From Dictyostelium discoideum (taxonomy: Eukaryota), in NCBI GenBank assembly GCA_000004695.1, contig CM000155.2, positions 608,001 to 672,000 of the forward strand: 64,000 nt of DNA. The letters run 5' to 3'. This document shows, piece by piece, positions 1 through 11,497 of this stretch; position 1 is the stretch's first letter, and every line of letters begins with the position of its first letter. Both the position numbers and the translations under genes were made by a program. The notes under the pieces were generated by a model. That model made no database searches, was not told the DNA's origin, and worked only from the letters and a program-made list of their open reading frames with translations.

Positions 1-2016
1 TACAAGGACGAACAGTGTGGGTGATAGTGGATCTCCTTGTTTAACTCCTCTTTTGATCTCAAAGGGTATAGTAATTTCAATTCTTGCTTCAGATTTGGTG
101 AGTAGATTCATTATCAGGTTGATTATATTGGTTGGAATGTTGATGTGTTGTAGTGATCTAAGTATTGAACCGTGTGAGATCGAGTCAAAAGCTTTTTCGA
201 AATCATATAGTGTAATTATTCCGTTAATTCTTTTATCATTACAATAGTTGATTAATTCGTTCATTGATATGATATTATCTAGAATGAATCTGCCTGGTAC
301 GAAACCTTTTTGATTGTGGTTGATCACTTTCGTTAGTATTGGGATTATTCTATTGTTTATTAGCTTTGAGTGGATTTTATATATCCAGTTAGCCAGTGTA
401 ATTGGTCTTCTGTTTTTGATTAGTTCGGGGTCTCCCTTTTTAGGTATCGTGATAATGAGGCCTTCTTTGTAATTTTTGCTAATTAGATGAGGATTTCTTA
501 GAGTGTCGTTGAATGCTGAGGCCAGTATTGGAGCTAGTTTTTCTTTGTGTGTTATGTAGAATAAGTTTGGAATTCCATCTGGGCCTGGAGATTTGTGTGG
601 GTTCAATTGTTTTATTACTTCTAGGATCTCTTGTGATGTGAATTCATTTTCAAGGTTGTCCCATGTTGAGTCCCTGGTCACTGTCCAATTTTCCAACATT
701 TCATAATGAGATGGTGGGTCATCTTCTTTGTAGTCATAAAGATTTGAGTAATATTTTACGTATTCTTCTTCGATCAATTCCTGTTTGTTGATTGTTCTAC
801 CTTGTGCATCTTTTACTGCGTTGATGGTGAAATCATTGTGTCTTTTCTTGATTCTCGCGGAGATGTACTTGAGTGAGGTTTCTTCGCAATAGTTGTTCAA
901 TTCTTGTTTAAGTTGTTCTTCTCTTTTTTTAGATTCATTTATTGCTGAAAGGGTTGCGAAGGCTTGGTCTTTAAATTCTGTCTCTAGTAGGGAGATTAGA
1001 TTTTTGATGTTTGCCTTATTGTTGTAGTCATTTTGTTTTTGAAATTCTGTGTATAGTTGTTTTATTTTGTTTAGTAAGCTGTTGAGTTGAGAGAAGGAAA
1101 TAGAGTTATGGTTGGATGACAGCTCCCTTGAATAATCGTTAAGTAGGAAGTCTATTTTCTTAAGCATTATGCTTGAGAGGATTGAGGATTTTTTTAATCT
1201 CCATCTGCGCTTGTTCATCTGTATGTTGGGTAGAGTGAAGGTGGTTGATAGGAAGTTGTGATCTGATAGAGGTATGTCATTAATTTTTGGGGGGATTAGG
1301 TTCCTTAAGTATAATTGGCTGTAGTTGATTATGCTATTGTTAAGGTATATTCTGTCTAGTCTCCTTTCCAAGATTCTTGTGAGGTTATTGTTTGTGTTGT
1401 GTATCGTTCTTGAGAAGGTGGGTCTTTTATTTAGTTGGTCCATATCCATTAGGTTATTTGAAATTCTGATGGCTTCGATTACTGTGGCCATCTCATCTGG
1501 GGATTGTGTTGTCAAGTTGCCTTGGTCATCATTTGATGTGTGATTGTCATTGAAGTCTAAACAATTGAAGTCGCCTGCTATGATGTCGATGTTTTTTTTA
1601 GGGTTAGACGTTAGGTTGTGGTATTGGTTGTTGAAGTGTTTGTTTAGTGTTGAAGCTAGTATTTTTCTTTTATCAGGTTGGGCCGGGGCGTATATGGCCA
1701 AGATTCTCGTTGTGGTATCTTTTATTAGAATGTCTGATATTATTAGTCTACCTTCTATTATGAATATTGGTGAGAGTTTTATGTTTTGGTTGTTGTGGTT
1801 TAGTATTCCTATTCCGTTGCCTCTTTTGGTTGCGCTAATGATGGAGCCAGGGAATAGCTGGTGTGCTTGTGTTGCGTCGGCGTTGAGTTCATTGACTATG
1901 GTTAGTGCCAATGAGTTTGGGGGGGATTGGGATTTGATAAAGTCTGTTTTGTTTTTGAAGGAGGTGTCAGTGCCCCAACCTCTGACATTCCATTGGTTGA
2001 TTTTGATTACTACCAT
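1..2016 (-). CDS. Retrotransposon ORF2 with apurinic/apyrimidinic endonuclease then reverse transcriptase, partial (C-terminus off window).
   Basis: The ATG is the reverse complement of 2014-2016. The hand translation gives MVVIKINQWNVRGWG...IYAPAQP...GDFNCLDF...SDHN (APE motifs), followed further 3' by the RT motif SPGPDGI. It is absent from the ORF track because it has no stop inside the window. Confidence 0.7.
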   Translation of the reverse strand, partial: MVVIKINQWNVRGWGTDTSFKNKTDFIKSQSPPNSLALTIVNELNADATQAHQLFPGSIISATKRGNGIGILNHNNQNIKLSPIFIIEGRLIISDILIKDTTTRILAIYAPAQPDKRKILASTLNKHFNNQYHNLTSNPKKNIDIIAGDFNCLDFNDNHTSNDDQGNLTTQSPDEMATVIEAIRISNNLMDMDQLNKRPTFSRTIHNTNNNLTRILERRLDRIYLNNSIINYSQLYLRNLIPPKINDIPLSDHNFLSTTFTLPNIQMNKRRWRLKKSSILSSIMLKKIDFLLNDYSRELSSNHNSISFSQLNSLLNKIKQLYTEFQKQNDYNNKANIKNLISLLETEFKDQAFATLSAINESKKREEQLKQELNNYCEETSLKYISARIKKRHNDFTINAVKDAQGRTINKQELIEEEYVKYYSNLYDYKEDDPPSHYEMLENWTVTRDSTWDNLENEFTSQEILEVIKQLNPHKSPGPDGIPNLFYITHKEKLAPILASAFNDTLRNPHLISKNYKEGLIITIPKKGDPELIKNRRPITLANWIYKIHSKLINNRIIPILTKVINHNQKGFVPGRFILDNIISMNELINYCNDKRINGIITLYDFEKAFDSISHGSILRSLQHINIPTNIINLIMNLLTKSEARIEITIPFEIKRGVKQGDPLSPTLFVLV

Positions 2017-2981
2017 TATGAGATGATATCGATCTCCTCTTGGGAGTCGTTTAGCTGCGGTTTGGATGGTGAAGGGTAGATACTCTCTATGAAGCTCTCA
2101 ATGATTCCTTTCCTTTCTTTTTTGACAGGTGTCTTAGGGGTGGATGGGATGTAAGGGTTGCTTCTGTTTATTGTTGGTGAGAGTTGGGTGACTTCATTGT
2201 TTGAGTGGATTTCCTCGTTCTTGCGTTTATGTGATGGAGGGATGTTTAGTGTCTTCTCTCTGTTTTCCGAGGATGAATGGATGTTAGTGCTTGTTTTGTT
2301 GGCATTGTCTTTTTGGATGGCGTTGGATGTTGTGGTAGTGGTTGTGGTGGGTTTGACAGATTGAGATTCTGCTGGGTTTTTGGGGGGAAGAGGTTGAGAT
2401 GACTTTTTTGCTTGGGCTTTTTTCTCTTGTGTTGATTGTTTATCAGACTGATTGTTTGCTGGGTTGTTTGTTTGGGTGTTAGGAGGATCTGTCATCTCAT
2501 CTTCTAATGGTTCCTCCGTGTTGTTTGTCTCTACTTTCTTGTTTTTCTTTTGTGAGGAGTAGGTTTTGGTGGCCGTTCTGATGGTAAAGTTTGCGATTTC
2601 TGTAATGTGTTGGCCAGATTTCATTTGATCGCCTATTTTGCATTCTATTAGACCGAATACTATGAGGTGGTCGGTGGAGTATATAGTATTGTATATTGCA
2701 TAGGGTATTTCTTCTGCAAAGGCAGTTTTGATGAGGGCGTCCACTATTCCTGCCTTTTCTCTGGGAATTCTTACTCTTCCTGTGAGGACGTGGAAGTCTC
2801 TACTGGAGGTGATGAAGGTTCCCAATTTGCTTCTATCTCTAATGATATTTAGGAGAGATTGTTCGTTTTTAATCATCAGGTGGATCATTTTTCTAGTTCC
2901 TTTGCCTATGTATATCTTGTCGATTGGGATATCGTAGTTTGAGAGTGTTTTTCTCATTTCTTCTAACCCCTTGAGATCCAT
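2016..2981 (-). CDS. Retrotransposon ORF1 (321 aa).
   Basis: ORF-track ORF MDLKGLEEMRKT..., with an ATG at 2979-2981. It lies immediately 5' of ORF2 and overlaps it, as in TRE/L1-like elements. Confidence 0.6.
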   Translation of the reverse strand: MDLKGLEEMRKTLSNYDIPIDKIYIGKGTRKMIHLMIKNEQSLLNIIRDRSKLGTFITSSRDFHVLTGRVRIPREKAGIVDALIKTAFAEEIPYAIYNTIYSTDHLIVFGLIECKIGDQMKSGQHITEIANFTIRTATKTYSSQKKNKKVETNNTEEPLEDEMTDPPNTQTNNPANNQSDKQSTQEKKAQAKKSSQPLPPKNPAESQSVKPTTTTTTTSNAIQKDNANKTSTNIHSSSENREKTLNIPPSHKRKNEEIHSNNEVTQLSPTINRSNPYIPSTPKTPVKKERKGIIESFIESIYPSPSKPQLNDSQEEIDIIS

Positions 2982-3278
2982 TTTGGGGAATTCGAGTGTA
3001 ATTGGGTAGAATCCGTTGTTCTTCTCCTAGGTTGAGAGCGCAGTCATGTTCAATATGGTCTCGCAGTATTTGGAGATGTCTTTGAGGCCTATTGATAGTT
3101 TGGGGTAGGTCTCCTTTATCTCTGCTGTTTTTGTGGAGAATTCCTTAATGAAGTTCTCCGATGCCTCGTCCATATGGGTGGAGGGGTTGGCCATTTTAGC
3201 CGCGTCTGCGTAGGAATTCATCTCGATGGGATTGCTTTGAATCGCCGATTTGGTAAGCTAGATCTGCAGATCGCGCCG

Positions 3279-3378
3279 NNNNNNNNNNNNNNNNNNNNNN
3301 NNNNNNNNNNNNNNNNNNNNNNNNNNNNNNNNNNNNNNNNNNNNNNNNNNNNNNNNNNNNNNNNNNNNNNNNNNNNNN
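3279..3378. other. Assembly gap (100 N).
   Basis: A run of N. Four further identical 100-N placeholders lie at 10332-10431, 19337-19436, 25315-25414 and 58800-58899. Confidence 1.
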
Positions 3379-3443
3379 TTGAAAAAAACAATCACCCACA
3401 ACAATTTTTTTTTTTGAATATTTCATTTTTCAAATAAAAAAGC

Positions 3444-3488
<45 letters not shown>

Positions 3489-3563
3489 GGAACCAAGTTA
3501 ATTAGAAAATTTCCAGATTTTTAACTTTTTAAAGAAAAATAAAAAAGATAGAAAGAAAATAAA

Positions 3564-4898
3564 ATGAAAATCACAAACAACACCACAAATATTAAGCAAC
3601 ACAAATGCCTACAAAAAATAAGCGAAATTGTGGATAAAACTCAATTAAAAAAAAAACAATTCAAATACGTCATAAACATCAATCACGAACCAGACGATAA
3701 AATAAAAAAAGATTTAGAAAAAAGTTTGGACAAAAAAGATGTTTTAATCAAAAGTAATAATACATTCAAAATTCTCACAGACAGTATTAGTACAGTAATC
3801 TATTTTGTAAATATGTTTGATGCAGAATTAAAAGGACAATTTATAACCACTATAAGACCAAAAAATATGTATACAGATTTTGATTGGTATAAATCACTCA
3901 CAGAAATAGAATGGGTAATAGAAAATGAAGGATGTAAACTAATTAAATCAGAAATTAAAGGCGAAACTCTAATTATCAAAACAGTGAAAAGAGTCGTAGA
4001 AGAATTTGACACTATCATTGAACTAGACAATCTAACATTAATTGGACACTCCAACAAAGGATGGAGAGATCAAACCTCATTACCAGAAAATCAAGAAGAA
4101 AACAAAAATAAAAAACAATCAGATGAACAACAACCACAATCTACATCAGAACAAATACCAAAACAAGGAAAAAGAACAATCATTATCCCACCAATCACAT
4201 CCTCATCTAATGATAAAACATTTATGGCCCTAGATGATACAGCTCAAAAGGTAATAGAAGCATCACTAGAAAACGTAGATGAACTAACAAGAATAGAGAA
4301 TGAGATCAATACACAATCGATAAACAATCAAGAAATTAAAACAAAATCAGAAAAACCTATCGAACCACCATCTCCATACAATACACCAATAAAACAACAC
4401 GGCGAAACAAAGGGACTAACAACGGAAGAAAAACTTAGAGAGGCAAATGATATCTTCGACTTCACCAGCCCAAACACTGATGCAATAAGAAAAATAGAAT
4501 TCCCACTTTCAATCCCTTCAAATCAATGGTTCTTCTCCTCTCCAATAAAACATATCATGAGTTTCAGCCCAACCTATGGTACACCATCGAAAATTATCGA
4601 TTCACCAAGTAAATTGTTAAACACACCAAAAAAGAAACAACAAGACAAAACAAACAAGACCAACAAAACACCAGTCAAACCAAAATTGGGTGAATATGGA
4701 CAAAAAAGCATAAAAACAAAAATGGATGAAGATATAGACAACTTCAACAAGGAAATTCTAAAACAAATCAATAAATCAAAAAACCCCACAAACACACAAG
4801 ACCAACAACACAATGAACAAAGTAAAGATCAGTTAGAAGACAAAATAAACCAGAAACTTCAAAAGGTAGATAAAAATCTACCCCAAATAAAACTATAA
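3564..4898 (+). CDS. Retrotransposon ORF1 protein (444 aa).
   Basis: Long ORF MKITNNTTNIKQHKC... The same 5' 200 nt is repeated at 5297-5497. An endonuclease-type ORF2 start lies directly downstream. Confidence 0.6.
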   Translation: MKITNNTTNIKQHKCLQKISEIVDKTQLKKKQFKYVININHEPDDKIKKDLEKSLDKKDVLIKSNNTFKILTDSISTVIYFVNMFDAELKGQFITTIRPKNMYTDFDWYKSLTEIEWVIENEGCKLIKSEIKGETLIIKTVKRVVEEFDTIIELDNLTLIGHSNKGWRDQTSLPENQEENKNKKQSDEQQPQSTSEQIPKQGKRTIIIPPITSSSNDKTFMALDDTAQKVIEASLENVDELTRIENEINTQSINNQEIKTKSEKPIEPPSPYNTPIKQHGETKGLTTEEKLREANDIFDFTSPNTDAIRKIEFPLSIPSNQWFFSSPIKHIMSFSPTYGTPSKIIDSPSKLLNTPKKKQQDKTNKTNKTPVKPKLGEYGQKSIKTKMDEDIDNFNKEILKQINKSKNPTNTQDQQHNEQSKDQLEDKINQKLQKVDKNLPQIKL

Positions 4899-5152
4899 AG
4901 AAAAACACAATAAGAATAGGTGTTTGGAACGTCCAAGGATCCAACACCATCCAATCTGCCAGCATAATAAACACCGTTTTAGACAACAACAAGCTGGACG
5001 CAGCACTTCTAACTGAAACAAATATAAAAACAAATAAAATTTACTCAATAAATCAACAATATAAAAACAAAATAACACACCACGCACCAATTGATAAAAC
5101 AGGACAAGGGGTGTCACAAATCATCATCAACACCCGCAATAGAACTTCCTAA
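4874..5152 (+). pseudogene. Truncated ORF2 (APE N-terminal fragment) of the TRE3-like copy.
   Basis: The frame -1 relative to ORF1 reads PNKTIKKNTIRIGVWNVQGSNTIQSASIINTVLDNNKLDAALLTETNIK... and ends at a TAA at 5150-5152 next to the deletion junction. No in-frame ATG precedes it. Confidence 0.5.
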
Positions 5153-5194
5153 ACATCTCAAAAAATACAATAATTCACTCAGTACTTTCTATAA

Positions 5195-5250
<56 letters not shown>

Positions 5251-5253
<3 letters not shown>

Positions 5254-5566
5254 CCAGTTTATTCAGAAAAATTAAAAAAGATAGAAAGAAAATAAAATGA
5301 AAATCACAAACAACACCACAAATATTAAGCAACACAAATGCCTACAAAAAATAAGCGAAATTGTGGATAAAACTCAATTAAAAAAAAAACAATTCAAATA
5401 CGTCATAAACATCAATCACGAACCAGACGATAAAATAAAAAAAGATTTAGAAAAAAGTTTGGACAAAAAAGATGTTTTAATCAAAAAGACCCTGTAAAAA
5501 AAAAAAAAAAATAAAATGAGATCTAGCATCTCAAGGAGAAGCAAATAATAATTGCGTTATCCAATT

Positions 5567-5602
<36 letters not shown>

Positions 5603-5750
5603 GAACCAAAAAAAAAAAAAAAAAAAAAGTAAACTAACCCCTCTTTTAGAGACCCTGTAAAAAACTACAAATAAAATGAGATCTAGCATCTCAAGGAGAA
5701 GCAACTAATAATTGCGTTATCCAATTCAAAAAAAGGACTTATTATTAATC
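5251..5750 (+). mobile_element. Second, severely truncated TRE3-like copy: 5' UTR plus the first 63 codons of ORF1, fused to two tandem ~85-bp 3' modules separated by A-tracts.
   Basis: 5272-5486 is near-identical to 3539-3760 and diverges at ttaatcaaaa|agaccctg. The unit agaccctgtaaaaa..taaaatgagatctagcatctcaaggagaagcaa.taataattgcgttatccaattc occurs at ~5487-5569 and ~5658-5740. Confidence 0.5.
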
Positions 5751-5951
5751 CCCATTAAAAAAAGACTTTTAATATGAATAAATATTAAAAAAAAAATGAA
5801 AATGATTGGAAATAAGTTTATTATATATTTATTTAAAGAAACAACTATAAAAAATGTTTAATCAGCTTTTTTTTTAAAATCAGTTTATTTGAAATTTATC
5901 AAATAAAAAAATAAAAACTGGAAATTATTGGAAATTAAGTTTTATTTTAAT

Positions 5952-8504
<2,553 letters not shown>

Positions 8505-9176
8505 TATATATATATATATATATTTATTATTATTTTTTTGGATGTGATTTTATTTATTTGTGTGAATATTAAAAATTTGGAATTAATACAATGGAAAAAA
8601 AAAAAAAAATTTTAAACAAAATAAATATTTAAAAAAATGAGAAAAGGTATAATTTAATTAATATTAAAATAAATAATAAAAAAAAAAAAAAAAGGATTAT
8701 TATAATGAGAAAAATTTGTATAAATTATTAAATTATTATTATAAATGGGGTTCACTTTTTTGGTTAATTTTTAATTTTTAATTTTTAATTTTAATTATTT
8801 TTAATTTTGGTTTTAATTTTTTTTTTTAATTTTTTTTAATTTTTTTTAATTTTTTTTATTTTTATTTTTATTTTTATTTTTATTTTTATTTTTATTTTTA
8901 TTTTTATTTTTATTTTTTTTATTCAACTAATTAATTTAATTTAATTTAATTTAGTTTTTTTTTTTTTTTTTTTTTGTTTTATTTTTTTTTTTTTTTTTTT
9001 ATTAGGAAATGATTTAACAATTTAAAAGGAACATGTAATGCAAATAAAAAATAAAAACTAAAATATTTACCCTATTCATATATGAATTGATTCAACTCGT
9101 TAACCCATTACACTATTTTGTGGATTTTTTATTTATTCGAGTTAAAAAAAAATTCTTAAAAAAAAATTTTTTTAAG

Positions 9177-9211
<35 letters not shown>

Positions 9212-9277
9212 TTAATTTTGTTTTTTTTTTTTTATTGCTTACGTAATAAACACAAAAAAAATACATACTATCCTTTT

Positions 9278-9308
<31 letters not shown>

Positions 9309-9353
9309 CTTTTGTTAAACCTTAATTTATATATTAAAGATTGTTTTTTTAGA

Positions 9354-10095
9354 ATGGCTGATGATGGTGAATTGGTATGCAAAAATTACTCTCACAATTC
9401 TTTATTTTAAACCCTTTTTTTTCCAACAAATATTTTTTTATAAACTATTAACTTTCAACTTTTTTTAAACAAACAAATAAATAAACAAATAAATATAAAT
9501 ATAAATAAACAAATAAAATTTATAATAAAATTTAAAATAAATATAAATATATATAGCCATTTAGTTATGTAGAAGAGAATACACCAGATGGATTAGAATG
9601 TGTAATTTGTTATTGCCCATTAATTGATCCAGTTGAACATATAACACAAAATTCAACATGTAATTCATCATTTTGTAAACAATGTGTTTGCACATTGAAA
9701 TCTTGTCCCATTTGCAGATTAGAAGTTTCAAATTGGACAAGGGTACAACTTACACCTTCAACACTTCGTTTTATATTTAGACCACTATCAGATATTAAAG
9801 TAACATGTAATGTTTGTAAAAAAGAAACAACAAGAAAAGAAATTAAATCTCATGTTGAATCTTGTGGTATTAGTATGTATTATTCAATTATTTTTTTTTG
9901 TTAATTTATTAAATATTTAATATTAATAATTATATTATATCATATGACACAGAGTTACCAGAAGGACTATACCCAGAATTAGAAGTAAATAAACAACCAC
10001 AACTTCAACAACAACAACAACAACAATCATCAAATACTCTTTCAAACTTTTTTGGAGGAATTTCTGAAAAATTAAAATTCAAAACAAATGATCAA

Positions 10096-10162
<67 letters not shown>

Positions 10163-11497
10163 GAAGTCCAATAGATGATAGAAGGAATACTCCATTACCA
10201 CCACCACAACAACAACCAATTACACCAAACCAACAACAACAACCACAAATACAACAGCATCAACAAATACAGCCACCTCAACAACAGCAACCAATATATA
10301 ACCCTTATCCACCATATCCATATTATCAAACNNNNNNNNNNNNNNNNNNNNNNNNNNNNNNNNNNNNNNNNNNNNNNNNNNNNNNNNNNNNNNNNNNNNN
10401 NNNNNNNNNNNNNNNNNNNNNNNNNNNNNNNTTATCAACCTCCACCAAATCCATATTATTATAAACATCCACCACCAGCACCACATTATGTTCCACCTAA
10501 TCCTTATTATCAAATTCCACAACCCCCACCAGCACCACAACCACCACAACCACCACAACCACCCCAACCACCACAAGCACCTCTACCACCTCAACCACCT
10601 CAACCACCCCAAGCACCTCAACTACCTCAACAACTAATTCCATCACAAAAACAAGAGCATCAAAATATAAGTAGAACGTCAGCTTCAGTAATAGCAGAGG
10701 CAACAGCTGCCTCATCAAATAATCAAAAATTAAACTATCAACCACCACCACCAAGTTATTATCAACATCAACAACAACAACCAAATAATTATCAGCAACA
10801 ACAACAACAACAACAACAATCATCACCATTACCACCACCAAATTATTATTTAAATCCATTATCACAAACTCCAATTGATCCACAAATGGCAAGTACATCA
10901 GCAAATTTAATTGATAGAGAGTTAGAGAATGAACAATTTTATCCACCAATTCAAAGTTTCTCAGCCAATATTTTAGCAAATGGACAAACATTAAGCAATG
11001 TTAATTTTAATAATCAAACCTTGAAGAACATTACCTTTTTAAATAGTACAATATCGGCAAGTCGTTATCAACATACAAGATTCGAAGGTTGTATCTTTCA
11101 AGAATGTAACATCAATAGCAGTTCCTTTATCGAATCTGCATTCATTGATTGTATATTTATGAATTGTAATATCAATGGTTGCGATTTCTCAAAATCAACC
11201 CAAGAGAACTGTTATCATGTCAATAGTGATATCTCCAATTGTAATTTCTTTCAATCCTCTGGTAACAATGTCAAATATGTCGCTGTCACTATGTTAAATA
11301 ATAATTTCGCTCATAGTATTCCTCGTAGTACATTCTGTAGATGCAACCTAACAAATGCTCAATTCTCAAATTGTAATCTCTCAAAAACAAGATTTAAAAT
11401 CTCACAACTCAATTATGCTAATTTTGTCTCTGCTTATTTCGACCTTCCATTAGACCATATCTTTGATCAAAGATCTGAAAGAAAACTTTGTAAATTT

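Follow-up and report, generated by a model that had tools for sequence, protein, structure and literature searches.

A TRE5-A.2 copy and a solo TRE5-A C-module beside an assembly gap in Dictyostelium discoideum

The stretch of Dictyostelium discoideum DNA analyzed here, 64,000 nucleotides of contig CM000155.2 and hereafter called the window, raises the question of how a composite repeat on the right of an assembly gap came about. Read by itself, the region resembles a retrotransposon copy followed by an A-tract, a truncated second copy and further 3′ modules, and a first-pass annotation had proposed two internally deleted TRE3-like copies in tandem, with junctions near 5150 and at 5486 attributed to local template switching, twin priming or recombination. 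We conclude, with a probability of about 0.96, that window positions 3379–5598 are a single canonical copy of TRE5-A.2 (formerly DRE), which is a known non-autonomous subform of the non-LTR retrotransposon TRE5-A (DRE). The window DNA is AT-rich, and the species is D. discoideum, the 444-aa ORF1 product being 99% identical to several AX4 proteins. The gap, 100 N at 3279–3378, lies directly before the element and is absent from the first-pass description.

TRE5-A is organized as A/B-ORF1/ORF2-B/C, with a 200-bp A-module promoter, a C-module of 134–137 bp and a 290-bp B-module that holds the ORF1 start and is duplicated from the 5′ to the 3′ UTR (PMC3159450). TRE5-A.2 has the layout A/B-ORF1-B/C: a large part of ORF2 is deleted, and a further 72 bp are lost across the B/C boundary, so that 87 bp remain at the 3′ end of the C-module (PMC3159450). 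Mobilization of TRE5-A.2 in trans by the TRE5-A.1 ORF2 protein has been shown experimentally, and its activity in vivo equals that of TRE5-A.1; retrotransposition depends on the C-module stem-loop, and the ORF1 protein, which binds subunits of TFIIIB, has been proposed to guide insertion to a site ~48 bp upstream of tRNA genes (PMC3159450, PMC5391098, PMC5633606). ORF1 also contributes in cis to activity and targeting (PMC3159450), and the orientation and distance rules of TRE5 versus TRE3 insertion are given in PMC5911963.

The two deletion junctions of the copy bear most directly on its origin. At the ORF2 deletion junction, 5135/5136 on the plus strand (represented by a 40-mer at 5116–5155), 3134 bp found in TRE5-A.1 are absent, and there is 1 nt of microhomology; the breakpoints of this deletion were mapped on the full-length copies in L002 and L003. 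At the B/C deletion junction, 5486/5487 on the same strand (34-mer at 5467–5500), ~70–72 bp are absent, made up of 22 nt of B and 48–50 nt of C. The length of the B/C deletion varies with A-run length. A search for other copies with the same junctions had been suggested by the first-pass annotation, and they were found at nine loci (L001–L009) fetched from the independent assembly GCA_054883475.1, where at least nine other loci encode exactly the same ORF1 protein; the loci were picked for this identity and form a biased sample of TRE5-A copies. The 40-mer occurs with 0–1 mismatch and the 34-mer with 0 mismatches in 9/9 of them. Positions 3381–5580 align as one uninterrupted block of 98–99% identity in L001, L002, L007 and L009, and what had been described as two copies in tandem is one element; the 5′-truncated copy in L008 aligns from 3459. 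When differences in A-run length and a patch private to the window copy are set aside, the ten copies compared show only four substitution sites over ~2.06 kb.

The sister loci differ in their flanking genes and tRNA genes, and each copy examined has its own 11–17 bp target-site duplication. Since nine loci with different flanks share both junctions, their copies are interpreted as the outcome of separate retrotransposition events within one lineage in which both were already present. Judged from this sequence comparison, both junctions are inherited TRE5-A.2 lineage markers that came with the RNA template and did not form at this locus, and their presence in all ten copies compared speaks against the local events proposed earlier. 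The different flanks, tRNA genes and target-site duplications also exclude segmental duplication of this locus as the source of the other copies. Assembly misjoins at the two junctions, which had been raised as a possible explanation, are rejected, given that an independent assembly carries both at nine other loci. The first-pass annotation had itself stated that a consensus element with this structure would count against it, and this is what we observed: its subfamily is built in the same way.

Full-length TRE5-A.1 copies, found at 10438–15870 in L002 and 2013–7441 in L003, explain the apparent second copy. Both have the A/B-ORF1-ORF2-B/C layout with the 290-bp B duplication, and at their 3′ end the ORF2 stop codon is followed by an A-tract, a 290-bp repeat running from CCTGGGAACC to CAAAATTC and equivalent to window 3485–3774, and a terminal module of ~136 bp (GAAAC, A22, GTAAAC...CCAATTC). 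Because the full-length copies share the A-tract and the repeated 5′ region, the supposed “copy 2” is part of the normal 3′ UTR. The window copy is 98% identical to TRE5-A.1 over 3382–5135 and has 3′ UTR modules in common with it, whereas TRE5-A.1 additionally contains the 3134 bp of ORF2 (with the reverse transcriptase at residues 501–742), a complete 290-bp 3′ B-module and a C-module of 134–137 bp, of which the window copy keeps 81 nt.

On the plus strand the copy begins with an A-module cut by the gap, a B-module, ORF1 and an ORF2 stub; after an internal A-tract come the 3′ B-module, the shortened C-module and finally the poly(A) tail. The last partial A-module unit (3379–3448) shares 84% identity with the 199-bp units of the A tandems and is followed by a run of 36 A (3449–3484); together they account for the 106 bp by which the element extends, toward the gap, beyond the start assigned in the first-pass annotation, and they are contiguous with the 98–99% block common to L001, L002, L007 and L009. 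The 290-bp 5′ B-module (3485–3774), delimited by its homology with the 3′ B-module of the full-length copies, holds the ORF1 start codon at 3564. Downstream of the ORF2 deletion lie the last 63 nt of ORF2 (5136–5198), with the stop codon of the full-length reading frame, and then 55 A (5197–5251), which separate the end of ORF2 from the 3′ B-module. This run, previously given as A52 after a 3′ tail, is indeed present, but it is an internal A-tract and no poly(A) tail; an internal A-tract of varying length occurs in all TRE5-A.1 and TRE5-A.2 copies compared.

The 3′ B-module (5252–5486) has the TRE5-A.2 form, which is without the first 8 nt, an internal stretch of ~31 nt and the last 22 nt. A second ORF1 start codon (ATG) lies within this module at 5297, and from there 63 ORF1 codons run to the 5486/5487 junction, just as first described. 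Positions 5259–5486 repeat 3526–3753 (228 nt, 98%), and the five private differences of the window copy fall at 5252–5272. The 3′ part of the C-module (81 nt, 5487–5567) contains stem-loops, with a predicted fold of −11.3 kcal/mol (z = −3.1); counting back from 5567, the nucleotides T15, C26 (stem III), A35 and C38 (stem I), which are the published mutagenesis sites of the C-module, are all present and lie inside predicted stems. The poly(A) tail of the copy consists of 31 A (5568–5598), and in the sister copies A-tails of ~10–30 nt are followed by target-site duplications. The two 3′ modules interleaved with A-tracts that had been noticed at the end of the region are real: 5499–5574 and 5659–5734 are 95% identical over 76 nt, with A-runs of 31 and 21 nt between them, and the internal repeats of the region far exceed chance.

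ORF1 (3564–4898, plus strand) is intact, as initially proposed, and encodes 444 aa with a mass of 51.3 kDa; the published size is 51 kDa (PMC5911963). The ORF2 remnant (4877–5152, plus strand) lies in frame −1 relative to ORF1 (ORF1 in frame 0, ORF2 in frame 2), which corresponds to the −1 frameshift and ~51-kDa ORF1 of TRE5-A.2. A stub of about 90 ORF2 codons ending in a jump near 5150 had been described; the stub and the jump are confirmed, but homology to full-length ORF2 covers only 86 codons and stops at 5135, and the junction is at 5135/5136. The 3134-bp loss shifts the frame, and five out-of-frame codons (RNRTS) therefore precede the stop codon at 5150–5152. The full-length relatives in L002 and L003 have an ORF2 frame of 1151 codons, and the L002 frame served for the comparison; it matches Pfam RVT_1 at residues 501–742, the sole match of this frame, with no endonuclease domain. 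Pfam searches of ORF1 and of the ORF2 stub returned sub-threshold noise only, and a PDB sequence search with the N-terminal 273 aa of ORF2 gave no match. The label “endonuclease” for ORF2 is putative and comes from the literature and from motifs read by eye.

Comparison with published TRE5-A.2 reveals no substantive difference, apart from the A-module cut by the gap and the five private differences at 5252–5272. The layout and both deletions agree with the DRE subform (Marschalek et al. 1992 as cited in PMC3159450; Beck 2002; Siol 2006, 2011), as do the 51-kDa ORF1 and the positions in the C-module stem-loop. The A/B-ORF1-B/C organization, with the B-module of 290 bp in the 5′ UTR and its duplicate in the 3′ UTR, is found in the window, its A-module being only partly visible at the gap. 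The large ORF2 deletion corresponds to the 3134 bp absent relative to L002 and L003, and the 72-bp B/C deletion to the 70–72 bp absent with 81 nt of C kept. This retained C part is shorter than the published ~87 bp because the A/TAAAA run is shorter.

On these grounds the family is TRE5-A and not, as first suggested, TRE3, an assignment drawn from sequence organization and based on the position of the sister copies, 45–57 bp upstream of tRNA genes in the opposite orientation, together with the A/B/C module layout. Placement was judged against the pattern for TRE5-A.2, that is, ~44–54 bp upstream of a tRNA gene, with 5′ ends facing and a 10–16 bp target-site duplication. At six sister loci a tRNA gene adjoins the element (His, Val, Thr, Ser, Val and Gly); their copies start 45–57 bp from the tRNA 5′ end, with the tRNA on the opposite strand, and have target-site duplications of 11–17 bp. 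No tRNA gene adjoins the TRE5-A.2 copies in L008 and L009, the latter of which is flanked by a duplication. No B-box was detected when the surroundings of the L008 and L009 copies and the sequence to the left of the gap were scanned for A-box and B-box motifs, and tRNA and Rfam scans of the window detected no tRNA gene and no Rfam family. TRE3 membership was rejected because the sister copies are placed upstream of, and opposite in orientation to, their tRNA genes (PMC5911963 for the TRE3 pattern). TRE3 UTRs are without A/B/C modules, whereas the element carries A, B and C, and the 3′ B duplicate is specific to TRE5-A.

A TRE3-type non-LTR element of 5.28 kb is nevertheless the neighbor on the other side of the gap, occupying window positions 1–3278 on the minus strand. 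Like TRE5-A, TRE3 (TRE3-A to TRE3-D) comprises tRNA-gene-targeted D. discoideum non-LTR retrotransposons with two ORFs and a −1 frameshift, in which the ORF2 domain order is endonuclease, reverse transcriptase and zinc finger (PMC5911963). In L004, a 3′ remnant of the TRE3-type neighbor lies in the same orientation 90 bp downstream of tRNA-Ser, and a TRE5-A.2 copy lies upstream of the same tRNA gene; the same order of TRE3-type element, tRNA gene and TRE5-A.2 is therefore likely across the window gap. Upstream of sister copies the 199-bp A-module units are arranged in tandem, with 8.5 units in L001, and the 5′ flank of the window copy falls inside the 100-N gap. From these comparisons, the gap probably hides the remaining A-module unit or units, the ~48-bp spacer, a minus-strand target tRNA gene and ~120 bp at the 5′ end of the TRE3-type element. 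We infer the targeting and promoter integrity of the window copy, as the gap leaves neither the full A-module, which is the promoter, nor a tRNA gene or 5′ target-site duplication visible.

Immediately downstream of the TRE5-A.2 tail, positions 5599–5734 (plus strand) form a separate 5′-truncated TRE5-A remnant that comprises four unassigned nucleotides (CCTT), a complete C-module (5603–5727; GAACC, A21, GTAAAC...CCAATTC) and an A7 tail (5728–5734). It lies outside the block shared by TRE5-A.2 copies, and the last 3′ module (5603–5734) does belong to a second element; in this point the first-pass view of more than one element was right. The DDHD gene at 5952–8504 lies beyond it. The remnant has the sequence of an older variant (CTACAAAT, GCAACTAAT), which also occurs in L003, where it stands alone between duplications as the tRNA-distal member of a five-member tandem, and the GCAACTAAT change recurs in old remnants of L005 and L006. 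In the tandems of L002 and L003 a copy of the target-site duplication follows every member and the oldest member is farthest from the tRNA gene, in agreement with the published observation that successive insertions at one tRNA target produce tandems with the oldest member in that position (PMC5391098). Because the variant recurs as an independent solo unit in L003 and the L002 and L003 tandems accumulate stepwise, we consider it likely that the solo C-module represents an earlier 5′-truncated TRE5-A insertion at the same target, which the later TRE5-A.2 insertion would have displaced to a greater distance from the tRNA gene. Only the reference assembly joins the TRE5-A.2 copy to the solo C-module; the orthologous locus in the second assembly (L010) confirms the sequence from 5584 onward, and its contig ends at ~5584 within the A-run.

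The strongest alternative, rather unlikely in our opinion, regards 3379–5734 as one chimeric insertion in which reverse transcription copied only the C-module of a TRE5-A.1-type RNA and then moved on to a TRE5-A.2 RNA at its poly(A) end. Such an event would fit the lack of a spacer or recognizable target-site duplication between the TRE5-A.2 tail and the solo C-module, around which no target-site duplication is visible. However, the solo variant is older and exists as a duplication-flanked unit in L003, the TRE5-A.2 part is near-identical to other young copies, and successive insertion at one tRNA target is the rule in L002, in L003 and in PMC5391098. In addition, the 9 nt CCTTGAACC could be the target-site duplication of the TRE5-A.2 copy, with its 5′ counterpart hidden in the gap. 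The two interpretations make different predictions for the 5′ flank before the A-module, which would match GGACTTATTATTAATC after one chimeric event and CCTTGAACC (± A's) after two events.

Another interpretation of the solo C-modules with CTACAAAT/GCAACTAAT is a minimal SINE-like lineage of “C-module only” elements, copied by the TRE5-A reverse transcriptase via the 3′ stem-loop. The two solo units (window 5603–5727 and L003 ~11001–11136) both start at approximately the B/C boundary or its A-tract; we consider such a lineage distinctly improbable.

It is also very improbable that the TRE5-A.2 copy was misplaced beside the gap through reads of other identical copies. This possibility is raised by the position of the 100-N gap, which abuts the element, by the >99% identity of the copies outside A-runs and by the break of the independent assembly at ~5584. 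Against it, the last bases of the independent contig, immediately before the solo C-module, are a run of at least 15 A, as expected of a polyadenylated element, and the window copy has private differences; even a misplaced copy would have the internal structure of a genuine canonical element. Two internally deleted TRE3-like copies joined in tandem at this locus would fit the resemblance noted at the outset and the TRE3-type element that does adjoin the gap on the left. This interpretation has almost no chance of being right, given that the same composite with identical junctions exists at nine other loci, that full-length elements also bear the A-tract and the repeated 5′ region, that sister copies show TRE5 placement at tRNA genes and that the structure fits published TRE5-A.2 (PMC3159450).

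A single TRE5-A.2 copy at this locus would have arrived by target-primed reverse transcription. The TRE5-A.1 ORF2 protein, with its endonuclease and reverse transcriptase, would be supplied in trans and recognize the C-module stem-loop, and the ORF1 protein would steer insertion to ~48 bp upstream of the tRNA gene via TFIIIB. The earlier idea that an ORF1-only element of this kind could be mobilized in trans was right, and for TRE5-A.2 it has been experimental knowledge since 2002. In this respect TRE5-A.2 resembles non-autonomous, internally deleted LINE derivatives mobilized in trans, which retain a promoter region at the 5′ end and a recognition structure at the 3′ end and borrow a reverse transcriptase; unlike that general class, TRE5-A.2 keeps an intact ORF1. 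The region is ordinary and already known, and its significance is slight beyond the correct annotation, namely a TRE5-A.2 copy and a TRE5-A solo C-module beside a TRE3-type element and an assembly gap. The dispersed, near-identical and duplication-flanked copies at tRNA genes that were compared here are consistent with recent amplification by target-primed reverse transcription.

The window copy of TRE5-A.2, the ORF1-only, non-autonomous subform of TRE5-A (3379-5598), directly follows a 100-N assembly gap (3279-3378). Left of the gap, a 5.28-kb non-LTR retrotransposon is present almost in full (1-3278, minus strand). Its ORF2 contains a reverse-transcriptase domain, its ORF1 is broken by a stop at 3027, and its 5′ ~120 bp extend into the gap. 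This element is TRE3-type because at L004, one of nine compared loci of the independent assembly GCA_054883475.1 that encode the same ORF1 protein as the window copy (L001-L009), a 176-bp 3′ remnant of it is found 90 bp downstream of a tRNA-Ser gene, in the same orientation. As for the gap itself, the TRE5-A A-module forms tandem arrays of 199-bp units in the independent assembly, with 8.5 copies in L001 (6226-7909) and a similar series of 199-bp matches, read from alignment matches, over the same span in L007 (6222-7814). Such arrays may have caused the interruption of the reference assembly at the 5′ end of the window copy.

Five private differences distinguish the window copy at 5252-5272, immediately 3′ of a 55-nt A-run, where it has CCCCAGTTTATTCAGAAAAATT against CCCAAGTTAATCAGAAAAAT in each of the nine other TRE5-A.2 copies. 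Either sequencing errors past the homopolymer or genuine private mutations could account for them. The host gene closest to the solo C-module, a separate 5′-truncated TRE5-A remnant (5599-5734), ends ~220 bp away and encodes an 850-aa DDHD-domain protein (5952-8504, minus strand; Pfam E = 1.8e-30) with long Asn/Thr homopolymer runs.

At L003, we observed a single tRNA-Thr gene with five successive TRE5-A-derived insertions (1814-11290). Besides a full-length copy and a TRE5-A.2, the series includes a 965-bp 3′ fragment, a solo C-module and one more remnant, and an identical target-site duplication, GTTTTGTAAT(T), comes after every member. The TRE5-A.2 copy of L009 (7567-10013) has an intact 14-bp target-site duplication, CTATTAGAAATAGG. 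A neighbouring TRE3-type element is 5′-truncated, and its truncated end lies ~35-50 bp from the TRE5-A.2 copy, near whose own 5′ end neither a tRNA gene nor a B-box motif was found. At L008, an inverted 20-nt piece of the TRE5-A ORF1 start (7877-7896) is flanked by a TRE3-type element on one side and a 5′-truncated TRE5-A.2 on the other. Units consisting of A-, B- and C-modules without ORFs occur in L008 (10009-10528) and L006 (2916-3423), and resemble what recombination of a 5′ with a 3′ B-module would produce.
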